64,000 bases of DNA from Sphingorhabdus sp. (lineage in GTDB: Bacteria > Pseudomonadota > Alphaproteobacteria > Sphingomonadales > Sphingomonadaceae), in NCBI GenBank assembly GCA_036479555.1, contig JAZGFP010000002.1, positions 286,802-350,801 on the forward strand, given 5' to 3'. The notes below the pieces were generated by a model. It was not told the DNA's origin, searched no databases, and worked only from the letters and a program-made list of their open reading frames with translations. Positions within the stretch are counted from its first letter, which is position 1, and each line of letters begins with the position of its first letter. The position numbers were made by a program, and so were the translations under genes. This document shows, in pieces, positions 6,385-19,061 of the stretch.

Positions 6385-6448
6385 ACCGCGTAAATTACAA
6401 GTAAGCACGACTATGACTAAGCAAGTACTACACAAGGGGAATACGACC

Positions 6449-7006
6449 ATGAAGAAACTGATTGCAACCGCGCTGTTTGGCGCAACAATGCTGACGGCAG
6501 CTACATCTGCCTCTGCTACCACATATATCTACAAACAGAATAACGGCGCGGTATTGACGCTTGATACAGCCAACAACCGTGGCACGCTGATCGGGCGCGA
6601 CATTAATGTCAGCTTTACCAGCAGCGATCTTGCCAATTTCACCGGCGGCGCGAAGCCGAGCGGTTCATTCACGCTCGATAACCTTGATGGATACCGCAAG
6701 ATCCGCGGTCGCCGCTATTATGACAATCCGTCGCATACGCAAAAGCTGATCATCTCAGACAATGGCCGCACCAACCTGTGGTCTCACTGGGGTACGACCC
6801 CGCGCTATGGCGACTATATCACTTATGTGCGCAAATATTATCCGCCCACAACCGGAAGTTCGGGCGGATCCACGAGCACCGGCGGCAGCACGGGCGGCGG
6901 ATCAACCGGCGGCACTGATGTTCCGGCACCCGGCATGCTCGCACTCTTCGGCCTTGGCGCAGGCGCACTAGCCTTCCGCCGCCGCCGGAACAAGAAAAAC
7001 GCATAA
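6449..7006 (+). CDS. PEP-CTERM (VPAP variant) sorting-domain surface protein
   Basis: Signal peptide MKKLIATALFG..., Gly/Ser/Thr linker, C-terminal VPAPGMLALFGLGAGALAFRRRR. Confidence 0.9.
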   Translation: MKKLIATALFGATMLTAATSASATTYIYKQNNGAVLTLDTANNRGTLIGRDINVSFTSSDLANFTGGAKPSGSFTLDNLDGYRKIRGRRYYDNPSHTQKLIISDNGRTNLWSHWGTTPRYGDYITYVRKYYPPTTGSSGGSTSTGGSTGGGSTGGTDVPAPGMLALFGLGAGALAFRRRRNKKNA

Positions 7007-7078
7007 GCCAGAAGTTTGACGGCCCTTCGAGGACCAGTATGTTTCGTTGGGGCCTTTACCGAAAGCCCCAAATAACTG

Positions 7079-7120
7079 AGCGCAGGAGACCAGCAATGGT
7101 TTCCTGCGCTTTTGTTTTTT
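7079..7120 (+). terminator. Rho-independent terminator after PEP-CTERM gene
   Basis: AGCGCAGGAGACC-agcaat-GGTTTCCTGCGCT followed by TTTGTTTTTT. Confidence 0.8.
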
Positions 7121-7229
7121 GTGAGGCGGAGAGGGTTTTCGGGCAGCGATATACCGACAGGTGTTTTTGGGTGTGATTGTCACTGAAGCTAAGAACGATT
7201 GCTGGGAAATGGCGCGCCATGCTCCAAAA

Positions 7230-7502
7230 TCAAACCTCCACACCCCGCACTAAAATCCGGTAGTCCTGCATCGGGATGCATAGCTGCGCTTCACTACCTT
7301 CGCCGCTTCTACCTCCCTCGCGGGCATAGTGGGCGTCGATCATGCGGCGTAGGCGGCCCATCTGGACGCGGGGGTAGCTGTCCAGTTGAGGATCGAAGTC
7401 GCAGGGCTTTCCAAGTGCTTCAACCGCGATTGTGTAGGATTTCAAGTGAAAGGGGCTGCCTGACATGCGGTGATCGACGGAGGTAATTTTTCCGGGTTTC
7501 AT
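7230..7502 (-). CDS. Cassette 1 gene E: stand-alone 90-aa homologue of the N-terminal (putative winged-helix) domain of the 17342-19045 receptor
   Basis: KSYTIAVEALGKPCDFDPQLDSYPRVQMGRLRRM is 23/34 identical to the receptor segment; ATG overlaps the JAB stop (ATGA). Confidence 0.7.
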   Translation of the reverse strand: MKPGKITSVDHRMSGSPFHLKSYTIAVEALGKPCDFDPQLDSYPRVQMGRLRRMIDAHYAREGGRSGEGSEAQLCIPMQDYRILVRGVEV

Positions 7503-8206
7503 AACGTTGCTCCTTTCTCTTGGCTGCGTGCAAACAGGCCCTCGCAACTGCGGCGCAGGCTGTTGCTGCCCCCACGTCCGACAATGATGTGATCGAGCAG
7601 CGCTATACCCATCAGGCTTGCAGCCGCGGCGATTTCTCTAGTCAGCCTCAAGTCTTCGTGGCTCGGCTGTGTGTCGCCTGATGGATGATTGTGGACCAGG
7701 ATCAGCGCGGAAGCATTTTCAGCGAGCGCATGGCGGATGATTTCGCGCGGATGGGCCTGCACCTTGTCAACGGTGCCCCGCCACAGCGTGTGATCGGCTA
7801 GGAGGTGGTTGGCGCTATCGAGGAAAAATACGCGGAATGTTTCAATCTCTAGGCCCGCCATATCAAGCTGCAGATAGGGGAATAGATCGTCAGGTGCGGC
7901 GATAACGTTGCCACCGGCGAGGCGATGCTGAGTGCCCGAGATAATGGTGTTGACCAAATATCGCAAGCGCGCGCCAATGCGCTGCGATGTGCCAAGGTTT
8001 TCGCCGCCGGTCGTTAACACTTTGGCAAATATGTGATCGAGCGAACCATGGCGCGCGATCATTTGCCGACTGGTGGACAATGCGCCGGCGCCGGCCGGGC
8101 CGGCAAGAAGGTCTGTGAGGACGGCTAGGTCGGTGTCTCGGCCTTGCTGCGCTGCACATGCCGATATGTCGCGATCAGCAGCATCAGCATCTGCGGATAA
8201 GACCAT
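7499..8206 (-). CDS. Cassette 1 gene D: RadC-like JAB/MPN-domain protein
   Basis: IETFRVFFLD, HPREII, LILVHNHPSGDTQPSHED, LDHIIVG; start inferred at ATG 8206. Confidence 0.88.
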   Translation of the reverse strand: MVLSADADAADRDISACAAQQGRDTDLAVLTDLLAGPAGAGALSTSRQMIARHGSLDHIFAKVLTTGGENLGTSQRIGARLRYLVNTIISGTQHRLAGGNVIAAPDDLFPYLQLDMAGLEIETFRVFFLDSANHLLADHTLWRGTVDKVQAHPREIIRHALAENASALILVHNHPSGDTQPSHEDLRLTREIAAAASLMGIALLDHIIVGRGGSNSLRRSCEGLFARSQEKGATL

Positions 8207-8547
8207 ATGCCCTGCATCACGCCGAGCGCGTAGGATTGGAGATTGTCGCCGAAATAGGCCACGAAATGCGCGCCTAGGGCGATGAGCTGGGTTGCGGCGA
8301 TGGGTAGAGGCCAAAATCGTTCACTCCGGAAGGCAATCCAGAGGAAGATCGCTGTGACCACCATCTCGTTGATTGCCAGTAATGGGCTGGGTTCAAGCCA
8401 GTTTCGGCCAGTTTCCCAGTAGATTATTGCGGTAGTGAAGCTGCCAAGATACAAGGTTATCATCACGATTTTCTGTGAGCGGCTTCCCCAGATGAGGATA
8501 GCAATCAAGCAGACTGAAGACAGAATATCGTAAATTGTACCGATCAT
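8125..8547 (-). CDS. Cassette 1 gene C: small 4-5-TM membrane protein
   Basis: Hydrophobic segments; SERFW, Q..H, W..P, ATYRH shared with 16277-16720; GGGGA SD before ATG 8547. Confidence 0.8.
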   Translation of the reverse strand: MIGTIYDILSSVCLIAILIWGSRSQKIVMITLYLGSFTTAIIYWETGRNWLEPSPLLAINEMVVTAIFLWIAFRSERFWPLPIAATQLIALGAHFVAYFGDNLQSYALGVMQGIWSYPQMLMLLIATYRHVQRSKAETPT

Positions 8548-8602
8548 TTTGGTCCCCAATATTAAGGGGCTGCAGCATCACCATCTTCACGGCGAGGTCA
8601 AG

Positions 8603-8947
8603 CTATGCGATACGTAAATGGGTTTCGCTTAACGATTGACCCGAAGGCTGATCTTTCCATTTGTCGCCTCCAGCTTTTGCCGGTATCCGCATCTTCTGGC
8701 GAACTTCGGCAAAACCGCCATGCGCGTCGATGACCGCATTCTGCGCTGCATAGAGCGCGGCGATGGTTTCGCCCGTTTTTGCTACTGCATCCTGTCCGAC
8801 AATCGTGGACGCCCTGATATCGCGCCGGGCGGTTGACGTGGCGCAAGTCAAATTTGCCGCACACACCAGCGCTTCATCGATTGCGGTCTCCAGCGCGAAT
8901 AGTTTTTCTGCGACCATCTGGGTCGCGGCTAATCTTTCATTCAACAT
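8603..8947 (-). CDS. Cassette 1 gene B: 114-aa 'MLNER' alpha-helical protein of unknown function
   Basis: GGGAGG SD before ATG 8947; 11/21 N-terminal identities to 15866-16231. Confidence 0.85.
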   Translation of the reverse strand: MLNERLAATQMVAEKLFALETAIDEALVCAANLTCATSTARRDIRASTIVGQDAVAKTGETIAALYAAQNAVIDAHGGFAEVRQKMRIPAKAGGDKWKDQPSGQSLSETHLRIA

Positions 8948-9010
8948 AAGCACCTCCCGCTTGCAAAGCGCATGCACGCCAGCAAGTTTGCTGGTTGGGA
9001 AATCAGTCGC

Positions 9011-9586
9011 TCAATAGAACTTGGAAAGATTCTCTGCGATGCCGACAAGTACTGCAAAAATAACGATAGATATTATCATCAATATTGAGATTGCCAGCGC
9101 CCTTCGTGCAAAGGACATTTCGTTCCGGCGACTATTCTCCCACAGAACCGAAAATGGAAACTGGATGAACTTTCCGCCTTCTTCGCCCGCAAAATACGCT
9201 GCTTGCGCTTCATGAGCGGAAAATGTCCCGTTATCCTCCGCCGGGTTCCATTCGCCGGGGGACGACCTTGTTTGAGGGTATTCAGGGGCAGCGGGCAACG
9301 CCGGAGATTGGTATACCAATGATTGGTCACTCACAGATTCGTCAGCATGCAGGCGATTCTCGCGGTATATGCGGGCTGCTTCGAAGCGTGAGCTGACGCC
9401 CAGCAATGATTGCACACGCTTTAGCCGCTGATCGACTGTATGCGGGGATATGCCAAGGTCACGCGCGATTTCTTTGCTATTCTTGAGCTGCTCGACACCG
9501 TTCAATACATCGAAATGGAGGTCATCCAGCAGGCTGAAGTCTGGCAAATCGCCATTGTCGGAATTTTTGATGCCGCCCCTCGTCAT
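9011..9586 (-). CDS. Cassette 1 gene A: LuxR/sigma-r4-type HTH regulator with C-terminal TM helix
   Basis: SKEIARDLGISPHTVDQRLKRVQSLLGVSSRFEAAR; C-terminal ALAISILMIISIVIFAVLVGI. Confidence 0.88.
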   Translation of the reverse strand: MTRGGIKNSDNGDLPDFSLLDDLHFDVLNGVEQLKNSKEIARDLGISPHTVDQRLKRVQSLLGVSSRFEAARIYRENRLHADESVSDQSLVYQSPALPAAPEYPQTRSSPGEWNPAEDNGTFSAHEAQAAYFAGEEGGKFIQFPFSVLWENSRRNEMSFARRALAISILMIISIVIFAVLVGIAENLSKFY

Positions 9587-9659
9587 AATATTGGAGTATC
9601 ATAGGTGGCGCTTTCTTTCCAGCCGCGCATTTGCACCTATTTCGAGATGTAACCGAATG

Positions 9660-10754
9660 TTATCTCACGTTAACTTGACGGCGAATGCTGCCAGGAATTG
9701 CCGCAAGCTTTGCCTGCGCAGCGCTTTCGTCTCCTGCTGCCCGGTAAGCGCGGATCAGGCCGCCATGATATTCGGGCAGGTCGGGACGGCTCCGAAGCGC
9801 GCCTTCCATCAGATGAATGGCCTTCCATGGCTGGCCGAGCTTGAGCAAAGTCTTGCCCGAAAGGAACATTGCTTCTGAGTCGCTTTCGACAAGATCGCGT
9901 GCGTTGGCAAAATGCGTGCGGGCATTGGCATAGCGCGCTTGCCGCACGGCGATTTTGCCTGCTAGCAATTGCATTTCGGGGCGCTGCACCACACCTTTCG
10001 GCAGGCCATGCAGCCGCTTGAGAGCGGCGCCGAATTTCTTTTGCGCATAGAGCGCGCCAGCTAGCCCGGCCTGCGCATTGTTGCTCCCCGGAGCAAGATT
10101 AAGTGCGGCAATAAATGCGGCTTCAGCGGCTTTATAGTCGCGCGCGCGCATGTCGATATCGCCTAGCGTTAGCGCAGCGATGATATTTTCCGGCTGGGCC
10201 TTTTGCACACGCCTAACTGCTTCCCGCGCTTCGGGGAAAAGCCCAAGTTCGCTCCGCGCTCTTGCCAGGTCGATGGCCAGGCGGTGGTTGGTAGAATCTA
10301 GCCTATAAGCTTCTTCGAGCGCTTCGCGCGCATCCCAAGGCTTGTTCGCGGCCCAAGCGTTGAGCCCCCGGACAAAGGCTATGGTTGCCTTGCGGCCGCT
10401 CTTTTTGGCACTGGCAATTGCCTTCTCTGGCCTTTGCTGACGAGCCTGTGCTTCGGCCAGTAAGGGCAGTATTGTCTTCTCGGCGATGCCCGCGGACTTG
10501 GCTGCATGCAGACTGGTTTCTGCACCAGTTCCATCGCCGCGCGCGAGATCAACTTGCGCCGCGATCAGGCGGATTTTGCCGTTGCTCTCCCCCGCCTTGA
10601 AGGCCGACGCGATTAACCCGCGCGCCTTGCCAAAATTTCCGCGCTCATAGACCTGCTCGATAAGCTGCGCATCGGGCGCGTTGGAACCGCCTATATTGCA
10701 GGCGGCAAGCAGGCAAGTCGCAGCGATGGCCAGCGGAAATCGGGTCACTTTCAT
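9660..10754 (-). CDS. TPR-repeat lipoprotein (PrsT-like)
   Basis: LAAC lipobox; tandem Ala/Leu-rich TPR-like helical repeats. Confidence 0.75.
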   Translation of the reverse strand: MKVTRFPLAIAATCLLAACNIGGSNAPDAQLIEQVYERGNFGKARGLIASAFKAGESNGKIRLIAAQVDLARGDGTGAETSLHAAKSAGIAEKTILPLLAEAQARQQRPEKAIASAKKSGRKATIAFVRGLNAWAANKPWDAREALEEAYRLDSTNHRLAIDLARARSELGLFPEAREAVRRVQKAQPENIIAALTLGDIDMRARDYKAAEAAFIAALNLAPGSNNAQAGLAGALYAQKKFGAALKRLHGLPKGVVQRPEMQLLAGKIAVRQARYANARTHFANARDLVESDSEAMFLSGKTLLKLGQPWKAIHLMEGALRSRPDLPEYHGGLIRAYRAAGDESAAQAKLAAIPGSIRRQVNVR

Positions 10755-10843
10755 GGCTCAACTCAATAGCAGCCAAGGGTAAATATATGGCTTATGCGCT
10801 GCCAAGCTTGCGCCGCTGCGCGCCGCTGCCTAATGACAGCGCG

Positions 10844-11227
10844 ATGAAAGCGATTTTCCTAGTTATGGCAGGCGGCGGTGTGGGCGCGGCTTTGCGGCAT
10901 TTGCTCGGGCGTGCCTTGGCGCAGCAGGCGGCGGCCACCGGTTGGCCATGGGGCACCTTTGCGGTGAATTTGCTGGGCGGATTTGCAATGGGTTTGCTGG
11001 TAGGCTGGTTGGCACAGCGCGGACAGGGAGATGAGAATTTGCGGCTGCTATTGGGCGTTGGGCTGCTCGGCGGCTTTACGACATTTAGCGCGTTTAGCCT
11101 TGAGGCGGCGTTGATGATTGAGCGCGGGCAGGCGATGCTTGCTCTCGGATACGCACTGGCTTCGGTGGTGCTCGCGGTATTCGCGCTATTTGCCGGACTG
11201 TGGATCGCGCGCGGGGTGTTTGCATGA
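10844..11227 (+). CDS. crcB: Fluoride efflux channel CrcB/FluC
   Basis: GGGVGAALR, PWGTFAVN, GLLGGFTTFSAF. Confidence 0.96.
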   Translation: MKAIFLVMAGGGVGAALRHLLGRALAQQAAATGWPWGTFAVNLLGGFAMGLLVGWLAQRGQGDENLRLLLGVGLLGGFTTFSAFSLEAALMIERGQAMLALGYALASVVLAVFALFAGLWIARGVFA

Positions 11228-12471
11228 GCACCTCGAAGGATGTGCGGCAGTTTAATGTCGGTATTGATGATGACGGTATCCGGCTTGATCGCTGGTTCAA
11301 GCGGCATATGGCCGATGCGCCCTTTGCATTGGTGAGCCGCTGGGCGCGCACCGGGCAGCTGCGGTTGGATGGTAAGCGCGTGCAGGTATCGGACCGGATA
11401 GCTACCGGCCAAACTATCCGCGTACCCCCCGTTTCTGCAGATGCGATTAAAAAACGCACGGCGCGCAGGCGGATCGAGCTTAGCGCAGAGCAGATTGAGA
11501 TGGCGCGCTCCTTGGTGATCCACCGGGACCGAGCGGCGCTTGTGCTCAATAAACCTCCGGGGCTGGCGACGCAGGGCGGTACAAAGATTTCCCAGCATAT
11601 TGATGGCCTTCTCGATGCTTACTGCGAAGAGGATGATGAACCGCGCCCGCGGCTTGTCCACCGCCTGGACAAAGATACATCGGGCGCGCTGCTGGTTGCT
11701 CGCTCACCGGGCAGTGCGGCCTATTTTTCGAAGCATTTTTCGGGGCGCAGCGCGCGAAAAACATATTGGGCGCTGGTGATGGGTGTCCCCGATGTGAAGG
11801 ACGGTGTCATCGAATTACCGCTGGCCAAACAGCCAGGCACCGGCGGCGAAAAAATGTATGTCGATGAGGTTGAGGGGCAGACCGCCAAGTCGCGCTACCG
11901 GGTTATCGAAATAGCCGGAGATCGTTGCGCCTGGGTCGAGCTAACTCCTTTCACCGGACGCACACATCAACTGCGAGTTCATATGGCAGCGATTGGCCAT
12001 CCGATTGTCGGTGACGGCAAATATGGCGGTAAAGAAGCGTTCCTGACCGGCAGTATCAGCCGCAAGATGCACTTGCATGCGAGGGCCATAAAAATTGGTC
12101 ATCCCGATGGCGGCAAAATTTATGTTCGCGCTGATCCGCCCAAGCATTTTCTGGCCAGCCTTGGTGCGCTCGGCTTTGACCCCGATGCCGGCGACTTGCC
12201 CGATGATGAGAAGCGCCCGCCGATGACGCGGGCAAAGGCGAAACAAGTGGCGCGCCACCATTCCAAACAGATCCGCAAGGAACGGCGCGGTGAACGGCGC
12301 GGGCGCGCCGATGCGAAGGCAGCAACAAAGGCCGGGACAAAGGTGGGAAGGGGCGCGAAGGCAGGCGCGCGCGCGAAGGATGAAAAGCCCAAAAGGCGGC
12401 CGCCCAGACCCACTGGGCCTGTCCACAAGAAGACCGCCGGCCAGCCGCGAAAACGCAAAAAGAAATTTTAG
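11224..12471 (+). CDS. RluA/RluC-family pseudouridine synthase with S4 domain and basic C-terminal tail
   Basis: GIRLDRWF, LNKPPGL, VHRLDKDTSG, TGRTHQLRVH; ATGA overlap with crcB. Confidence 0.95.
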   Translation: MSTSKDVRQFNVGIDDDGIRLDRWFKRHMADAPFALVSRWARTGQLRLDGKRVQVSDRIATGQTIRVPPVSADAIKKRTARRRIELSAEQIEMARSLVIHRDRAALVLNKPPGLATQGGTKISQHIDGLLDAYCEEDDEPRPRLVHRLDKDTSGALLVARSPGSAAYFSKHFSGRSARKTYWALVMGVPDVKDGVIELPLAKQPGTGGEKMYVDEVEGQTAKSRYRVIEIAGDRCAWVELTPFTGRTHQLRVHMAAIGHPIVGDGKYGGKEAFLTGSISRKMHLHARAIKIGHPDGGKIYVRADPPKHFLASLGALGFDPDAGDLPDDEKRPPMTRAKAKQVARHHSKQIRKERRGERRGRADAKAATKAGTKVGRGAKAGARAKDEKPKRRPPRPTGPVHKKTAGQPRKRKKKF

Positions 12472-12479
12472 GGAGCTAA

Positions 12480-13100
12480 ATGATGCATCCCGATCCGGCA
12501 TTCCGTACCAAACTCAGCCCCGCCGATGAAAGGCTGATGCTTGAAGCATTAGTGCGAGAGATCGGTTTTGGCACGATATTCCTGACCACGCCCGATGGGC
12601 CGCGTGTGGCGCATGTCGCTTTTTTTGGCAGCGGTGACGGTGCGCTCCAGTTCCATCTCGCAAATAGCAATGCGCTGACAAAACATCTTGACGGCAATGC
12701 CGCGCTGGCACTCGTCAACGGCCCCGATGCCTATATCAGCCCCGATTGGTATGAAGCAGACGATCAGGTGCCGACATGGGACTATGTTAGCGTTGAAATG
12801 GAAGGGCCGGTGCGCAAGATGGATCGAGAAGGGTTGATCGCGCTGCTCGATGATCTTGCCCGCGAGAATGAAGAACGGCTCGCCCCCAAAGCCCCGTGGA
12901 CGCGGGAACAGATTGATGGCGTAAAGATGGACCGTATGCTTGGCGCGATCACCGGTTTCGAGATGGAGGTAAAGGCGTGGCGGCCCACATTGAAGCTATC
13001 GCAGAATAAGCCGGCAGAGGTGCGCGAACGCGTGGCGGTGCAGCTCGAAGCGCAAGGCAAAGCTGCGATGGCCCACCTGATCCGTCAATGGGGCGGGTGA
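12480..13100 (+). CDS. FMN-binding negative transcriptional regulator (PaiB family)
   Basis: FHLANSN, GPDAYISPDWY, VPTWDY, KLSQNK. Confidence 0.9.
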   Translation: MMHPDPAFRTKLSPADERLMLEALVREIGFGTIFLTTPDGPRVAHVAFFGSGDGALQFHLANSNALTKHLDGNAALALVNGPDAYISPDWYEADDQVPTWDYVSVEMEGPVRKMDREGLIALLDDLARENEERLAPKAPWTREQIDGVKMDRMLGAITGFEMEVKAWRPTLKLSQNKPAEVRERVAVQLEAQGKAAMAHLIRQWGG

Positions 13101-13101
13101 G

Positions 13102-13764
13102 GTGATGAAGCGGCTGGCTCTTTTTGATTGTGATGGCACGCTGGTGGACGGTCAGGCGAATCATTTTCAGGCGATGGAGCAGGCATTTTTCGCCGCTGAC
13201 ATCGAACCGATACCGCGCAGTGAAACGCGGCGAGTGATCGGGCTTTCGCTACTTGAATCGATGCGCGTTCTGGCACCGGAAACCGGTGAAGATACGCGCC
13301 GCGCAATGGTGGAGAGCTACAAATCTGCCTTCCTTGAAATGCGCGGTAACGGGGCAATCGAAGAGCCGCTGTATGAGGGTATGCGCGAATTGCTGGTGGC
13401 GCTTGATGGTGACGGCTGGATGCTGGGTGTGGCGACGGGCAAGTCAGATCGCGGCCTGACAAAATGCCTTGCACATCACGGGATAACCGACCTGTTTGTT
13501 TCCTTGCAAACAGCCGATAGGCACCCGTCAAAACCGCACCCTTCGATGGTCTATCAGGCGATGGGCGATGCCGGTGTTGACGCTGACGGCACCGTGATGA
13601 TCGGTGATACCGTCTATGATATCGAAATGGGAAAGGCCGCCGGTTGCCGCACGATTGCTGTGGGCTGGGGCTATCACGGGATTGATGAAATGCACGCAGC
13701 GGGGGCGGGCGCGCTGGCGGAAACGATGGCAGAGTTAAAGCAGATTTTGGGAGAATTCACATGA
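13102..13764 (+). CDS. HAD-IA family hydrolase (phosphoglycolate phosphatase-like)
   Basis: FDCDGTLVD, ATGK, SKPHP, MIGDTVYD. Confidence 0.93.
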   Translation: MMKRLALFDCDGTLVDGQANHFQAMEQAFFAADIEPIPRSETRRVIGLSLLESMRVLAPETGEDTRRAMVESYKSAFLEMRGNGAIEEPLYEGMRELLVALDGDGWMLGVATGKSDRGLTKCLAHHGITDLFVSLQTADRHPSKPHPSMVYQAMGDAGVDADGTVMIGDTVYDIEMGKAAGCRTIAVGWGYHGIDEMHAAGAGALAETMAELKQILGEFT

Positions 13765-14000
13765 CGCCAGTGGAAAAGGAGCAGCGGGCTTTCGGGCGTT
13801 TTCAAATACTCAATATTTCGCGCTTTGTTGCGGTCGGCTTTGTGATGGCTGGGGCGGCCAATATTGTTGGAAAGTTTATGCCCGAATATTCCCCCATCCT
13901 TGGCTATACATTGCTGGTAATCGGCGTGGTTGATTTCTTCCTGATGCCGGTCGCGCTCAAAAAAATGTGGGCGCAGCAAGCTGGCGACGAACAAAAGTGA
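13761..14000 (+). CDS. Small two-TM membrane protein
   Basis: Two hydrophobic segments; 4-nt overlaps with both neighbours. Confidence 0.7.
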   Translation: MTPVEKEQRAFGRFQILNISRFVAVGFVMAGAANIVGKFMPEYSPILGYTLLVIGVVDFFLMPVALKKMWAQQAGDEQK

Positions 14001-14689
14001 AGCGTTTCTGGCAGGACGTCGTGGTTGAAGAGCGGGATGGCGGCCATGCCATCCTGCTCGACGAGCGCGTAGTGAAGACGCCTTTGCACGGCGAACTTAT
14101 CCTGCCCAATGAGGCGCTCGCCAATGCGGTGCTTGCCGAATGGGCCGGCGTGGGCGAGGAAGTTGATCCCGCCACCATGCCGATGACCGGCTTTGCCAAC
14201 GCCGCGATTGACAAGGTGGCATCGGAGCGGGCTACCTTCGTTGATACAATCGCTGCGTATGGCGAAGCAGACCTTTTCTGCTACCGCGCCGAAAACCCGC
14301 GGCCGCTTGTTGACCGGCAAGACGAGCAATGGGGCAAATGGCTACGCTGGGCGCAGGCGCATTATTCCCTCAGCTTCACTGTCATCTCCGGCATTATCCA
14401 TCAGCCACAGCCCGAGGATACCGTCGCGCGGCTCAAAGAAGCGGTGGAGGAGCTGTCTGACTGGCAATTGGCCGCCGCATCGAAGCTGGCGCATATATCG
14501 GGGTCGCTCGTTGCTATGCTCGCGTTGGTGGACGAGGAGGCGAGCGCAGCGGTAATCTGGCCAGACCTGATCCTCGACGAGCTATGGCAGGAAGAGCATT
14601 GGGGTGCGGATGAATTCGCGCTGAAAAACCGGCAAGACCGCGAAGTGGAGTTTATGGATGCCGCCAGGTTTATGACGATGTGCCGATGA
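13997..14689 (+). CDS. ATP12/ATPAF2-family chaperone
   Basis: KRFWQDV, LLDERVVKTP, EWAG, MPMTGFANAAID, LFCYRA, DELWQEEHWGAD; GTG start 13997. Confidence 0.92.
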   Translation: MKRFWQDVVVEERDGGHAILLDERVVKTPLHGELILPNEALANAVLAEWAGVGEEVDPATMPMTGFANAAIDKVASERATFVDTIAAYGEADLFCYRAENPRPLVDRQDEQWGKWLRWAQAHYSLSFTVISGIIHQPQPEDTVARLKEAVEELSDWQLAAASKLAHISGSLVAMLALVDEEASAAVIWPDLILDELWQEEHWGADEFALKNRQDREVEFMDAARFMTMCR

Positions 14690-15144
14690 TCGTATCGGTG
14701 CCGGATGTCCGGCCGCATTGATCACTATTGCACCTGGGTGGCTATCAATTGGCAATAAGCGAGTTTGCCAATTTTCGGGCCGGACCCAAGTGTGGGTGTA
14801 TTGGAATCCGGCCCGAATATGATAGTCAGACGAAGCGGCTTGGATGGTCAGTTTGCTTCATCTGCTAGGTCATGCATCCCAGCAAATTTGAGACATGGAC
14901 CAGAAGACCCAAATTTCGCTGGAGCGCAGTATGTTCGCAATGACGATGAACCGTCGCGGGGACCAGCCCTGATTCATCTTCGCTTCGAACGATCTGGGTT
15001 ATGGAGGAACAGCGCGGTTAATTGGAGTTACAACCCGTATCAGATACCGTGATCCGCGGTAACAAGTTAACGATGTTGGTTGAGTCGGCCTGAATTCCAG
15101 TTACTGTGGTGGAGCTTCTGTGTTCATAGTTAATATTTTGTAAC

Positions 15145-15163
15145 GGTAACACTGTTTGTTACC
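15145..15163. promoter_or_regulatory. Operator-like inverted repeat GGTAACA-N5-TGTTACC upstream of cassette 2
   Basis: Perfect 7-bp inverted repeat in an AT-rich stretch ~95 nt upstream of gene A2. Confidence 0.45.
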
Positions 15164-15258
15164 TACATCTTGATGCGGTTTGAGCGCCGAAAACCTCCCT
15201 TTGGCTGCGCCGGGAGCATGTAAGGCGGCATGCGGTATTTTTTGCTAAATATCTGAAA

Positions 15259-15804
15259 TTGGGCTATGGAAGCCAAATGGTTGGTTCGGATTTTGAAAGT
15301 CTGATGGAGAAGGAACGGGCAGCACTTCGTCTTGTGCTTTGTGGCTTTGACGCAAAAGCAGCTGCGCGCGAAATCAATGTGACGCCAAATGTCATCGTCG
15401 AACGACTGCGCTCAGCTCGCCAAAAACTAGGCGTTACCAGCAGCAAAGAGGCAGCTCGGTTGCTTGCCCAGCATGAAGGTATCGCACCCAATTTTCTTGT
15501 ATCCAAGAAAATTGGAATTGTTTCGCCACCCAAAACTATAGCAATAAATCCCTTGCCTGATCGACAGGCAGCGACATCCGATCAAAATGTGGTCAGAGAA
15601 ATACAAGCGACTTACCAGTCTTACTCGTCTTTCTCCAATCCGTTGGTATCGGTGCCGTTTCGCAAGCAGGGAGAAGTTGGTAATGATCTGAGTAAATCGG
15701 CGAGATTTTGGGCAATTGCTGACCTGACCGTCAAACTTGCCTTTGCCTTCGCATTTGTTTGCCTGGCAGCAATCCTCGTCAGCACTTTGATCAACCGCGC
15801 CTAA
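15259..15804 (+). CDS. Cassette 2 gene A: LuxR-type HTH regulator with C-terminal TM helix
   Basis: AKAAAREINVTPNVIVERLRSARQKLGVTSSKEAAR; REIQATY / PF...NDLS..AR matches HEAQAAY / PF...NEMS.ARR of 9011-9586; C-terminal TM; start uncertain. Confidence 0.85.
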   Translation: MGYGSQMVGSDFESLMEKERAALRLVLCGFDAKAAAREINVTPNVIVERLRSARQKLGVTSSKEAARLLAQHEGIAPNFLVSKKIGIVSPPKTIAINPLPDRQAATSDQNVVREIQATYQSYSSFSNPLVSVPFRKQGEVGNDLSKSARFWAIADLTVKLAFAFAFVCLAAILVSTLINRA

Positions 15805-15865
15805 ATTTCCTGCTAAACTTTGACCTGTAAAGTCGCGCCGATGTTGAACGGCGCAGGGGGAATGT

Positions 15866-16231
15866 ATGTTGAACGAACGTATAGAAGCAGCCCGGCCTAT
15901 CGCCGAAAAAATCAATGAAGTAGAAACTTCACTGAATACGACGATGATGCAAATGGGCGAATTGATGAGCAGTATCGCTGCTGCACGCCTATCGCCTGGA
16001 ACCAGGTTCGCGCTTTCGTCCGGTGTTGATGCATCGGAAAAACTGATCGACGCTGCAGCTACCACAGCGCGTAGCTATCGAGAGGTTGTCGCGGCGCATG
16101 AGCATTTGGTAGCTGACCGCAATGCGGCCGGCCTGCGTGCGGTAAGCTGGGGCCCAGCCGGATGCCCGCCAGAAAAAGGTGAGGCAGAATCTGCTCAAGG
16201 TGTCTACCTTGAAGCGGTCGCCAATTCCTAA
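15866..16231 (+). CDS. Cassette 2 gene B: 121-aa 'MLNER' alpha-helical protein
   Basis: GGGGGA SD; homologous to 8603-8947. Confidence 0.85.
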   Translation: MLNERIEAARPIAEKINEVETSLNTTMMQMGELMSSIAAARLSPGTRFALSSGVDASEKLIDAAATTARSYREVVAAHEHLVADRNAAGLRAVSWGPAGCPPEKGEAESAQGVYLEAVANS

Positions 16232-16276
16232 TGGACCCGCCTTGACCGGACTGAATTATTTTGGTTTGGTCAAGGC

Positions 16277-16720
16277 ATGTCCATCAACGGCTTGTTCGAG
16301 TTTCTGCTGATACTTTCCACGGGCTATGCTCTTGTTAAGGGCGGGATGCCTGAACGTGTTGCAGCCGTTACCATGCTTGCCGGTTATGTGCTTACCATAG
16401 CCGTCGTTTCACCAACGGCATCGAGATTCCTATACATGGAATATCGAATAATGTTGGTGGATATTATGATGCTGGCAAGCTTTCTTTTTCTAGCGTTAAA
16501 TGCAGAGAGATATTGGACAATATGGTTGTGCTCAATGCAAGTTGTACAGGTGTTCACTCACTTTCCGATAATGTTCATGCCGGAGCTGTTACCCCGGGCC
16601 TACGCTTTGGTGGTGGCAGTTTGGGCAATTCCAATGCTGGCAGTTTTAACGCTTGCAACCTTCCGCCACCGACGGCGTCTCAGACAATTCGGGACCGACA
16701 GATCCTGGAGCAGCTCCTAA
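16277..16720 (+). CDS. Cassette 2 gene C: small 4-5-TM membrane protein
   Basis: AERYW, Q...H, W..P, ATFRH shared with 8125-8547. Confidence 0.82.
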   Translation: MSINGLFEFLLILSTGYALVKGGMPERVAAVTMLAGYVLTIAVVSPTASRFLYMEYRIMLVDIMMLASFLFLALNAERYWTIWLCSMQVVQVFTHFPIMFMPELLPRAYALVVAVWAIPMLAVLTLATFRHRRRLRQFGTDRSWSSS

Positions 16721-17286
16721 CAGTTGCCAAAATAGCAACAGCGTCAAGCGTCGCAGACGATCTGCTCCACGAATATGGTACATTGGCAGCGGCCTTGTCG
16801 GCTAGCCTGGAATCTAAAGTGATCGATCCGGTGTCGGCCTTATTGTCTTCGGTTCAGCAGGCATTGATTGAATCGGTGAGGCCAAAGGTCGCCGATCGGA
16901 AACGCCTTTCAAGCGCCGCCGACGTTATCGAATATCTAATTGTCGCGATGGCAAATTTGCCGATCGAAGTGGTCCGCGTGCTCTTTCTTGATATCCAAAA
17001 CCGCCTGATACGAGACGAGATTGTAGGTCGGGGTTCGGTATCTGAAGCACCTATTTATCCGCGTGAAATTTTGAAACGGTCTTTGGCGCTAGGCGCTACT
17101 GCCCTGATCCTTGCGCATAACCACCCTTCTGGAGATCCTGAGCCTAGCGAAGCTGACATTCTGGCAACGCATAGATTGGCAACAGCTGGCGCAGAGCTTG
17201 GTATCGCTGTGCATGATCACATTATAGTTGGACAGGCTGGCTGGGTCAGCATGCGGGATAATGAACAATTTCAGGATCAGGGGTAG
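16621..17286 (+). CDS. Cassette 2 gene D: RadC-like JAB/MPN-domain protein
   Basis: IEVVRVLFLD, YPREIL, LILAHNHPSGDPEPSEAD, HDHIIVG; start inferred at TTG 16621 after GGTGG. Confidence 0.88.
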   Translation: MGNSNAGSFNACNLPPPTASQTIRDRQILEQLLTVAKIATASSVADDLLHEYGTLAAALSASLESKVIDPVSALLSSVQQALIESVRPKVADRKRLSSAADVIEYLIVAMANLPIEVVRVLFLDIQNRLIRDEIVGRGSVSEAPIYPREILKRSLALGATALILAHNHPSGDPEPSEADILATHRLATAGAELGIAVHDHIIVGQAGWVSMRDNEQFQDQG

Positions 17287-17341
17287 GCAAAAAGTAGAAG
17301 TAGCGCTTGGGGAAATGTCAACTGGTTGTGGGGACAAAGAC

Positions 17342-19045
17342 ATGACATCGCATTCAAACATCGAGCATGGATCCAAGCAGGTCATGTCAGAACTTGAAGA
17401 GGTTTTGAATGCTCGGGAGTTTGTCAGATCACCAGTGATGTCGCGGCTGCTGACTTATCTTGTCGAACAATCATTATCCAATCCGGACAATCCTCCAAAG
17501 GCATATCATGTGGCAGTTGAGGGGCTTGGCCGGGCCGATGACTTTGATGTGCAGGCTGACAGTTATCCGCGGGTGCAAGTGGGGCGGCTGCGCAAAATGC
17601 TCGCTGCGTATTATGCGGAAATTGGCATTGGCCAACGGATCTGCATTCCGACGGGACACTATGCTGTGGTCTTTGACCATGGTCAGGTGGGCGCGGCAGC
17701 CACAGAGAACCAAAACGCCGCCCAGTCGCCCTTCGAAGGTGCAGGCAACCGTAAGCAAAAAAATCCGTGGAAGCAAAAATTGATGCCCCATTTAATGGCC
17801 GTGGCGATAGTGCTGGTCGCCGCCATTTTGCTGCTACCATCGCTCATTAATGGCCTCGCCCATGATAGCAAATTTGCGTTCTTTTCAACAACAGACAATT
17901 TCCGAAAGCCGCCAATATTATACATCGGCGCGGTAAAGTATGATGCTGATGTGGAAGCGTCCAAAACTGCAGGAGCAATCACAACCTTTCTCACAGATGC
18001 GTTTCAACGCTTCCACTCAATCCGGGTTTCTTCCCAAAATAAGGTGGCGGTGACGAAAGATGGAATATCCAATGCCTATTGGCTCGATAGCGAACTGGTG
18101 GGCGCGGGAAGAAATTGGCTGGTCAGGCTTCAACTTGTGGCGCTTGATCGCAAAGAGATTGTTTGGTCGCGGCAAATTTCGATCCTCGAAGGTCGCCATG
18201 ATCTGCCAGCAAAATTGGAGCCAATAGTATCAAAAATCGCGAGTATTTACGGCGTGATCCCGGATGACCAGAGAGCACAGCTTGGATCACGTAGGCTGCT
18301 CGGATATTCGTGCGTACTCCAGTTTGAAGAATATCGCCGCATAAGATCGCCTGAAATGCTAGAAGATGTCCAGAAATGTATTGATGCTACTTTGGAAGTG
18401 GCGCCGCTCGATCCCGGTATTTTGTCGGCTGCATCCTTCCTAGAATATCTCGACAATGATGTGTCGCGGCGCGAAGGCAATGCAGAAAAAGGCACCAAGC
18501 TTGCCAGCAAAGCCCTTATTCGCGGAAAGAACAATGCCGTTGCAAATTTTGGAGTGGCCCGCGCTGCTTTTTTTGCTGGAAACTGCCAGCGGGGCGTGCA
18601 TTACACACGCAAAGCTCTGCGCCTCAACCCTCTTGAACATGATGTTTTGATCAACGCGGGAGCTTTTTTGCTAGCTTGCGAAAATCCCGATGGGGAAAAA
18701 TATTTGCAGCGCGCTATCACTCTCGACCCTGACGGGCTGGTTACGCAATATACTACGCTGGTATTTCTGAAAATATCGCAAGGAAAAGGCGACGAAGCGC
18801 TTGCGTTGGCAGAGAGCATGGTGCCGCCTGCCGGAAGGGCTGAACCACACTATCACCTTGCCATGGCCATGGTGTATGCAGAAAACGGCCAGAGGGAAAA
18901 AGCAAAAGACGCCTGGAAACATTTGGAAAGCCAGTTTGGCACATCTGGCGTGAGCGATCCGGAACAGATATTGGGCGCCTTCATCACATCCAAGCCTTTG
19001 ATCAAGCATGGCCTCCAAATATTGCGCAGCAAGGATGTTATTTGA
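17342..19045 (+). CDS. Cassette 2 gene E: single-pass membrane receptor-like protein (N-terminal putative winged helix, TM, TolB-N-like domain, TPRs)
   Basis: FVRSPVMSRLLTYLVE...AYHVAVEGLGR..DFDVQADSYPRVQVGRLR; TM LMAVAIVLVAAILLLPSLI; C-terminal TPR-like repeats; GGGGA SD 7 nt before ATG 17342. Confidence 0.85.
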   Translation: MTSHSNIEHGSKQVMSELEEVLNAREFVRSPVMSRLLTYLVEQSLSNPDNPPKAYHVAVEGLGRADDFDVQADSYPRVQVGRLRKMLAAYYAEIGIGQRICIPTGHYAVVFDHGQVGAAATENQNAAQSPFEGAGNRKQKNPWKQKLMPHLMAVAIVLVAAILLLPSLINGLAHDSKFAFFSTTDNFRKPPILYIGAVKYDADVEASKTAGAITTFLTDAFQRFHSIRVSSQNKVAVTKDGISNAYWLDSELVGAGRNWLVRLQLVALDRKEIVWSRQISILEGRHDLPAKLEPIVSKIASIYGVIPDDQRAQLGSRRLLGYSCVLQFEEYRRIRSPEMLEDVQKCIDATLEVAPLDPGILSAASFLEYLDNDVSRREGNAEKGTKLASKALIRGKNNAVANFGVARAAFFAGNCQRGVHYTRKALRLNPLEHDVLINAGAFLLACENPDGEKYLQRAITLDPDGLVTQYTTLVFLKISQGKGDEALALAESMVPPAGRAEPHYHLAMAMVYAENGQREKAKDAWKHLESQFGTSGVSDPEQILGAFITSKPLIKHGLQILRSKDVI

Positions 19046-19061
19046 TGTTGGGTTTTTCGCC

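Follow-up and report, generated by a model that had tools for sequence, protein, structure and literature searches.

A 64,000-nucleotide stretch of the genome of Sphingorhabdus sp. (contig JAZGFP010000002.1; the whole stretch is called the window below) carries two diverged gene cassettes in opposite orientation, one on either side of a block that runs from crcB to ATP12. An earlier note, made from the letters of the window, had read these cassettes as a five-gene signalling system (genes A to E). We found that the conserved unit is instead a three-gene module, A-B-C, encoding a tail-anchored LuxR-type helix-turn-helix (HTH) protein, a helical-hairpin protein and a protein with five transmembrane (TM) segments, and that the 3' end of this module is variable. 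By its architecture and by analogy to known regulators, A-B-C may be a membrane-tethered transcription switch of the LuxR type, gated by B and C and accompanied by variable co-transcribed partners directed at nucleic acids; we put the probability of this reading at roughly 40%.

Gene order was read with hidden Markov models (HMMs) built for this analysis in two sets of loci: 80 loci chosen from the ranked matches of 301 evenly drawn Sphingomonadales genomes (the even draw), and the 80 loci most similar to C2 (gene C of cassette 2; the other copies are numbered likewise). A, B and C are adjacent and collinear in 74 of the 80 even-draw loci, in support of the earlier note's view that the genes form a conserved functional unit. 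The unit does not comprise five genes, however: D is present in about 25 of these loci and absent from about two-thirds, and E is present in none of the 80. Because of these counts we take A-B-C to be the conserved unit. The earlier note had made its proposal depend on co-occurrence of all five genes in other genomes, which was not found for E and was found only in part for D. Among the C2-like loci, E lies within cassettes solely in Parasphingorhabdus/Sphingorhabdus orthologues of cassette 2. Beyond the cassettes the neighbours are unrelated housekeeping genes (PhoR and the pst operon, an rRNA methyltransferase, alkA, trpDCB, Ku). The even-draw loci had the following architectures, where M is a MarR-like gene described below.

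A-B-C alone: 28 of 80 loci
A-B-C-M: 22 of 80 loci, with M between B and C in one more
A-B-C-D: 14 of 80 loci, with two further variants, ABCDA and ACBD
A-B-C with both D and M: 9 of 80 loci
A-C-M: 2 of 80 loci
A-C: 1 of 80 loci
C alone: 1 of 80 loci

Within the window, open reading frame (ORF) maps confirmed the coordinates of the twin opposed cassettes that the earlier note had placed around crcB, a pseudouridine synthase, a PaiB-like FMN-binding protein, a HAD hydrolase and ATP12 (Pfam assignments). Domains were assigned by Pfam and NCBIfam profile scans, and paralogue pairs were compared by pairwise BLASTP. All five pairs proved paralogous at 24-42% identity (A 1e-7, B 1e-6, C 2e-14, D 8e-35, E 9e-18), so that each gene does have a counterpart, as had been claimed, except that E1 is a fragment and cassette 1 offers no counterpart of the proposed receptor. 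Direct reading also bore out the details quoted before: A-B spacers of 63 and 61 nt, MLNER starts identical at 11 of 21 positions, 23 identities in the E core, and an intact HNHPSGD...DHIIVG in both copies of D. The genes of the two cassettes are these, with tetratricopeptide repeats abbreviated as TPRs.

A1, 9011..9586, minus strand: LuxR/GerE-type HTH (residues ~26-73), low-complexity linker, PF...N juxtamembrane motif and C-terminal TM tail anchor (~157-190)
B1, 8603..8947, minus strand: 114-aa 'MLNER' protein, helical hairpin and C-terminal tail, the tail motif degenerate relative to the family consensus
C1, 8125..8559, minus strand: 144-aa multi-pass membrane protein that retains the invariant family residues ERFW, Q, H, W..P and R (alignments)
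D1, 7499..8206, minus strand: RadC-family JAB protein; ATG at 8206 within C1, -1 frame, 82-nt overlap
E1, 7230..7502, minus strand: truncated 90-aa remnant of the E N-terminal domain; ATGA overlap with the D1 stop; no TM segment, no TPR
A2, 15277..15804, plus strand: LuxR-type HTH and C-terminal TM segment; likely start ATG 15277, ORF open from TTG 15259
B2, 15866..16231, plus strand: 121 aa, helical hairpin (helices 2-42 and 54-83) and a tail that is disordered yet conserved (GLRxV.WG...CPP...L..VA)
C2, 16277..16720, plus strand: 147-aa five-helix membrane protein with a basic C-terminal tail
D2, 16621..17286, plus strand: RadC-family JAB protein; TTG at 16621 within C2, -1 frame, 100-nt overlap
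E2, 17342..19045 (ORF open from 17228), plus strand: 567 aa, with a conserved N-terminal domain, one TM segment, an alpha/beta region and C-terminal TPRs

The A proteins (175-191 aa, HTH N-terminal) contain no autoinducer-binding domain or other further Pfam or NCBIfam domain. A1 matches the Pfam GerE model (PF00196) with 30.2 bits against a cut-off of 23.5. A C-terminal TM segment was found in 126 of 126 A proteins examined, with about 11 residues or fewer after the hydrophobic segment, and a PF...N..L....RL.WI juxtamembrane motif is common to the family. Members of the B family are about 110-122 aa long. The AlphaFold2 model of B2, made from a 72-sequence alignment, has a mean confidence (pLDDT) of 83.9. 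Its two long helices span residues 2-42 and 54-83, and the tail, modelled with low confidence, holds the most conserved motif of the family, PGLRTV.(W/F)GD..(E/D)CPP...LR(V/I)VA. A hydrophobicity scan revealed neither a hydrophobic segment nor a signal peptide in B1 and B2. C2 is modelled as a five-helix bundle with very short periplasmic loops (pLDDT 86; predicted TM-score, pTM, 0.83). By the positive-inside rule, the basic tail of C and its invariant ER(F/Y)W loop would face the cytoplasm. About 11 residues of C are invariant, polar ones among them.

We compared the cassette proteins with available databases. Neither B nor C has a match in Pfam, NCBIfam, PADLOC or PHROG; the PADLOC scan returned only generic HTH and JAB matches (E>=9e-5) and none for B, C or E, and the PHROG scan likewise returned none for these three. 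The B profile has no significant match in the PDB (best E 0.013, FliE), and Foldseek retrieved only generic helical bundles from the PDB for the models of B and C (all E>0.9). Judged by their sequences, B and C are thus two orphan protein families without annotation. In databases A, B, C and E bear generic names only ('helix-turn-helix transcriptional regulator', 'hypothetical protein', 'tetratricopeptide repeat protein') and full-text literature searches returned nothing relevant on the cassette, in line with the earlier note, which knew of no characterisation of the arrangement.

The regions upstream of both A genes share candidate operator motifs:

9649..9676, minus strand: motifs upstream of A1, operator-like AAGTTAACG followed by GATAACATTCGGTTAC, with a TATGAT...ATGAC start context further downstream
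15025..15276, plus strand: conserved non-coding region upstream of A2, with GAGTT(T/A)CAACCCGT, GGTAACAAGTTAACG, GTTAA..TTTTGTAACGGTAACA, the inverted repeat GGTAACA-N5-TGTTACC and, after these, the promoter-like TTGCTA-17 nt-TATGGA-6 nt-ATG

AAGTTAACG occurs twice in the 64-kb window, each time upstream of an A gene (0.11 expected), and TAACA-N3-7-GTTAC occurs in the window only at the two A upstream regions (0.10 expected). An alignment of 12 orthologous loci of the Parasphingorhabdus clade showed that three non-coding blocks upstream of A2 are kept. They are followed by TTGCCA-17 nt-TATGAT-6 nt-ATG, which may be a sigma-70-like promoter giving a leaderless A mRNA. CtrA and EcfG motifs were also sought in the upstream region by eye; the matches are imperfect and not conserved. 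On the Blastomonas plasmid pBSY18_2, the gap between trbB and A holds GGTTTCAACAGG and GAGTAACGG (L189:5905-5935), which resemble the GAGTTTCAACCCGT and GGTAACA blocks of the cassette-2 orthologues; the resemblance may reflect a shared operator, or chance.

Only D (RadC) and A (LuxR-type HTH) can be assigned to known families from sequence. In its logic the module resembles TraR-TraM and ToxR-ToxS, and no defining feature of those families was found in it. TraR and TraM of Agrobacterium Ti plasmids are a LuxR-type activator and a helical-hairpin anti-activator. As there, the gene for a LuxR-type HTH adjoins a gene for a two-helix hairpin of ~100-120 aa, and on plasmids the module lies beside trb genes. 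Unlike TraR, A has no autoinducer-binding domain and is tail-anchored in the membrane; B has no Foldseek match at E<=0.001, with TraM not among the top 50, and no sequence similarity to TraM; and a third, membrane protein (C) is obligatory. The cassette is not a member of the TraR-TraM family. With ToxR-ToxS, CadC and TcpP-TcpH it shares a DNA-binding domain tethered by one TM segment and a small membrane partner protein. However, in ToxR, CadC and TcpP an OmpR-type winged helix forms the N-terminus and a sensor domain lies in the periplasm, whereas the HTH of A is of the LuxR type and practically none of its residues are periplasmic.

Linkage, architecture, distribution, mobility and the shared upstream motifs are the observed basis of the switch reading, from which we infer the binding and gating steps. 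A would be the DNA-binding output of the LuxR/GerE type, held by its C-terminal tail anchor at the inner face of the membrane, and would act on other targets as well as on the TAAC/GTTAAC-type repeats that precede its own promoter, which is probably leaderless. B, a cytoplasmic hairpin with a flexible tail, would bind A and block or adapt it in the fashion of TraM with TraR. C, which has almost no periplasmic exposure, may sense a membrane-intrinsic state and so set the engagement of B or A. The genes after C would then be co-transcribed partners or outputs that act on nucleic acids (D, M or, in the Parasphingorhabdus lineage only, E), with D translationally coupled to C through the out-of-frame overlap of 80-100 nt. 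The module moves on the backbones of plasmids and integrative and conjugative elements (ICEs) and settles in chromosomes too. On this reading the window holds two independently acquired copies of a sphingomonad-specific regulatory cassette, the second from a Parasphingorhabdus-like source and the first older, more diverged and with most of E lost.

Several points weigh against this switch. Its mechanism rests on architecture and analogy, and B matches neither TraM nor any other anti-activator in sequence or fold (Foldseek, all E>1). Being tail-anchored, A could reach DNA only from the membrane or after release from it. A2 scores 19.8 bits against GerE, under the cut-off of 23.5, although it is a homologue of A1 (1e-7) and of 126 members of the family. 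Clear TAAC-type motifs are confined to cassette 1 and the cassette-2 clade; the two plasmid copies read show no evident ones upstream, and the enrichment of the motifs relative to a coding background is weak. Finally, the patchy distribution, multiple copies, plasmid carriage and varied insertion sites of the module also fit an addiction or defence module, which is considered below.

Among the genes that follow C, D1 and D2 match the RadC family (PF04002) with 136.3 and 138.2 bits (cut-off 22.1) and TIGR00608 with 147.5 and 134.7 bits (cut-off 133.85), and the JAB metal motif H-x-H-x7-S-x2-D is intact in both (HNHPSGD..PS..D). Both are full members of the RadC/UPF0758 family (E. coli YicR; prophage YeeS/YkfG/YfjY), the N-terminal region of the family included, and like the prophage RadC copies of E. 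coli they are extra paralogues on mobile DNA. Unlike the E. coli genes, D is embedded translationally in the 3' end of a membrane-protein gene, in an operon headed by a LuxR-type gene. Membership in the RadC family explains little about D. In 52 of 56 C-D pairs, D is in the -1 frame relative to C, and this constancy argues for translational coupling. Fusion of C and D through a -1 frameshift, which the constant frame relation could suggest, was rejected: no fused protein was found among the best 150 of 2291 family representatives, no slippery site was seen, and the internal starts at 8206 and 16621 explain the data. Chance placement of a housekeeping RadC was rejected as well, since each of the genomes that carry an ABCD cassette encodes, at another site, a RadC of housekeeping type that scores higher; D is accordingly a dedicated extra RadC. 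Our own genome has three RadC genes, the third of which (C2:367988-369403, with C2 here the contig, ~17 kb past the end of the window) is presumably the housekeeping copy.

Family M was first recognised on reading plasmid copies and comprises MarR-like winged-helix proteins (PF12802, 27.4 bits). In loci L113-L170 and in plasmid loci L187, L192, L193 and L194, M (~150 aa) is the commonest fourth gene behind C, frequently overlapping the 3' end of C, and it follows D in some loci. RadC and M share one open frame of ~480 aa at three loci (L131, L147 and L161), which may encode a RadC-MarR fusion. A strong M-family match in our own genome (6e-32; contig C1:11379-12434, minus strand) adjoins no A, B or C. 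A relation between M and the N-terminal domain of E was ruled out (BLASTP E 22). At two loci of a second alphaproteobacterial family (L088 and L089; family f80), a tandem pair of B-family genes precedes C, so B can duplicate inside the module.

We found C in 119 of the 301 evenly drawn Sphingomonadales genomes (~40%) and in 32 of 86 genera, usually in one copy and at most in four. Among 400 other alphaproteobacterial genomes it occurs in just one further family, where B-C and A-B-C adjacency is kept. In a search of 1.84 billion representative proteins the C profile retrieved 2291 clusters (E<=1e-3), and the best 150 of these are all stand-alone proteins of about 120-225 aa. In one genus (g15) the module is single-copy and all sampled genomes but one carry it, with A conserved at 1e-60 to 1e-70. 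Such strong single-copy conservation in some genera, together with the housekeeping neighbours, suggests vertical inheritance and purifying selection.

The two cassettes of the window are insertions. In tblastx comparisons with six genomes of the same genus, nothing or little was found between the equivalents of ~6385 and ~10900 and of 14680 and ~19050, which marks both cassettes as inserted and the block between them as conserved synteny. The insertions are bounded as follows.

6385..10790: insertion 1, cassette 1 with a gene for a PEP-CTERM protein and one for a TPR lipoprotein (tblastx comparison with the six same-genus genomes; Pfam)
14690..19061: insertion 2, cassette 2 and its upstream region (tblastx synteny with six same-genus genomes; G+C content)

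Cassette 2 has a G+C content of 0.48-0.52 versus 0.56-0.60 in its flanks. The two additional genes of insertion 1, for the PEP-CTERM protein (6413-7006, plus strand) and for a 364-aa TPR lipoprotein (9660-10754, minus strand), are absent from the same-genus genomes. In a tree of 166 C proteins with SH-aLRT support, C2 nests within the Parasphingorhabdus ABCDE clade (support 95-97), C1 forms a long orphan branch with <=33% identity to anything, and the presence of D requires 7 to 16 gains or losses. A third, partial copy lies on another contig of the genome (C4:2556-6205, L002) and consists of A3 (152 aa, without a C-terminal TM segment), a gap of 265 nt with no recognisable B, and C3, directly behind which stand an NfrB-like family-2 glycosyltransferase of 466 aa and a protein of 379 aa. 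In the tree, C3 clusters with the copies from the same genus, and the sole A-B-C copy of the six same-genus genomes is syntenic with this partial copy and retains B.

C-family genes were found on 28 sphingomonad plasmids, and eight plasmid contexts were read. On pBSY18_2, A-B-C with a JAB gene lies between trbB-L and the mobF/type IV coupling protein (T4CP) genes; in Sphingopyxis plasmid contexts the same combination adjoins strawberry-notch, ParB, integrase and VapBC genes; on three plasmids A-B-C with a MarR-like gene stands immediately before repC/repA; and two of the eight contexts have no backbone genes nearby. Four chromosomal ABCD loci have genes for a type IV secretion system (T4SS) or a relaxase at a distance of no more than 5 kb. 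One could therefore read A-B-C as a regulator of conjugative plasmid or ICE backbones that controls transfer (trb/tra) or replication, with the chromosomal copies, both cassettes of the window included, as relics of integrated elements, now without a target. The pBSY18_2 cassette, divergent from trbB, stands where a transfer regulator classically does, with the mating-pair operon on one side and the relaxase/T4CP operon on the other, and the copies directly before repC/repA and near T4SS or relaxase genes fit the same idea. At most chromosomal loci, however, the three genes are all intact and the neighbours are housekeeping genes only. The 64-kb window contains no transfer, replication or integrase gene, and at the cassette borders we found no tRNA gene and only chance-level repeats. 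Relics should decay, yet A1-D1 and A2-E2 are open and retain the invariant residues of their families. We consider this explanation unlikely, if with an appreciable chance of being right.

The main rival to the switch is a three-part module of the addiction or abortive-infection type, in which C would be the toxin, small and damaging to membranes, with B as a protein antidote to it and A as an autoregulator (compare omega-epsilon-zeta and paaR-paaA-parE), RadC and the MarR-like protein being usual passengers of mobile islands. The patchiness of the module and its one to four copies per genome speak for this rival, as do its carriage on 28 plasmids beside VapBC, integrase and transfer genes, the two insertion sites of our genome that are empty in congeners, the fast divergence of paralogues and the existence of partial copies (A-C, C alone). 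RadC-like genes also accompany the CbtA/CbeA toxin-antitoxin pairs in cryptic prophages of E. coli. Nevertheless, short pore-forming toxins are unlike C, which is predicted to be a well-packed five-helix protein and has ~11 invariant residues, polar ones included; in some genera the module is single-copy and strongly conserved amid housekeeping genes; B and C have no PADLOC match; and a membrane-anchored regulator is no feature of toxin-antitoxin systems. Its chance is distinct but rather small.

A narrower version of the switch gives D a part in it. Here a membrane-anchored switch of sphingomonad plasmid or ICE backbones, of a kind not recognised before, would comprise a tail-anchored LuxR-type activator gated by a TraM-like hairpin and a five-helix sensor, and the RadC/JAB protein would be a dedicated processing enzyme that, for example, frees A from the membrane or trims the conserved tail of B. 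We regard this joint reading, the role of D included, as doubtful. If true, it would assign a biochemical role to a RadC protein for the first time.

Gene E stands apart from the module. E1 matches E2 over 88 aa only (BLASTP 9e-18) and is a fragment of 90-105 aa that lacks the first helix, the TM segment and the TPR region; with the next gene only 224 nt off, there is no place for a frameshifted remainder, and the rest has been deleted. In the 605-aa ORF of E2, one hydrophobic segment (residues 183-213) precedes ~390 residues that include the TPRs, an order (a single TM segment, then an extracytoplasmic domain) shared with ToxR/CadC-type proteins. The winged helix of that type which had been proposed for E was not confirmed. 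The N-terminal region of E2 has no Trans_reg_C match (PF00486) in Pfam at E<=1, neither the profile of the E N-terminal domain nor that domain of E2 has a significant match in the PDB (full-length E2 matched through its TPRs only), and hhalign aligned 12 columns (the V.(V/I).RLRK helix) with six Trans_reg_C domains of our genome at a probability of 3.6%. Closest to E are alphaproteobacterial proteins of the type 'N-domain, TM, FlgO/TolB-N-like, TPR', many of them labelled adenylate cyclase or TPR protein. E2 is homologous over its full length to one from Sinorhizobium medicae and to stand-alone sphingomonad members; unlike the other genes of this type, E is joined to ABCD only in the Parasphingorhabdus clade and in our genome. 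Stand-alone E-like genes were found in Blastomonas fulva, Sphingomonas colocasiae and one same-genus genome. The last of these (G266) has a full-length gene (589 aa; L177:4901-6670) beside crcB, at the site of cassette 1; this site is a variable hot spot, and genes of the E type move independently of A-D. The full-length homologue on pMl3 of S. medicae (WQO69153.1, L195; 1e-31) is labelled 'adenylate cyclase'. It has no Pfam cyclase domain, just TPRs and a weak FlgO-like match, and because of this the label is probably a misannotation propagated across rhizobial megaplasmids; 235 plasmid records match E2.

The circuit proposed in the earlier note, an RRNPP-like one with B as secreted precursor, C and/or D processing or exporting it, the TPRs of E as sensor and A in control of the operon, could draw on the TPRs of E2, the variable, Gly/Pro-rich tail of B and the hydrolase nature of JAB domains, but is very improbable and largely refuted by the co-occurrence data: it fails because B has no export signal, E is in no even-draw locus and no transporter is linked. 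B was not borne out as a secreted signal or precursor, having no hydrophobic N-terminal segment, a confident model of a conserved, cytoplasmic-type hairpin of 85 residues and no linked transporter, Opp-type importer or peptide-maturation gene; nor is there a conserved receptor-peptide gene pair with E, as RRNPP systems have. The short predicted periplasmic loops of C make it unlike an exporter, and D is missing from about two-thirds of loci. E, absent from all 80 even-draw loci and stand-alone elsewhere, cannot be the receptor of the module, and its TPRs lie beyond the TM segment, unlike those of cytoplasmic RRNPP receptors.

Overall, what had been proposed for the window as a five-gene signalling system becomes a three-gene core with variable partners, and the peptide-signal reading is removed. 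Few uncharacterised gene triads of the Sphingomonadales, which matter for biodegradation and plant association, are linked as consistently as A-B-C, and the C family alone comprises about 2300 clusters at 50% identity with no annotation. With its recurrent, embedded RadC paralogue, the module provides a defined genetic setting for studying what RadC/JAB proteins do. Plasmid elements of the kind that carry the module spread catabolic pathways among sphingomonads, and its position there beside transfer and replication genes suggests that the module controls when such elements move or replicate.

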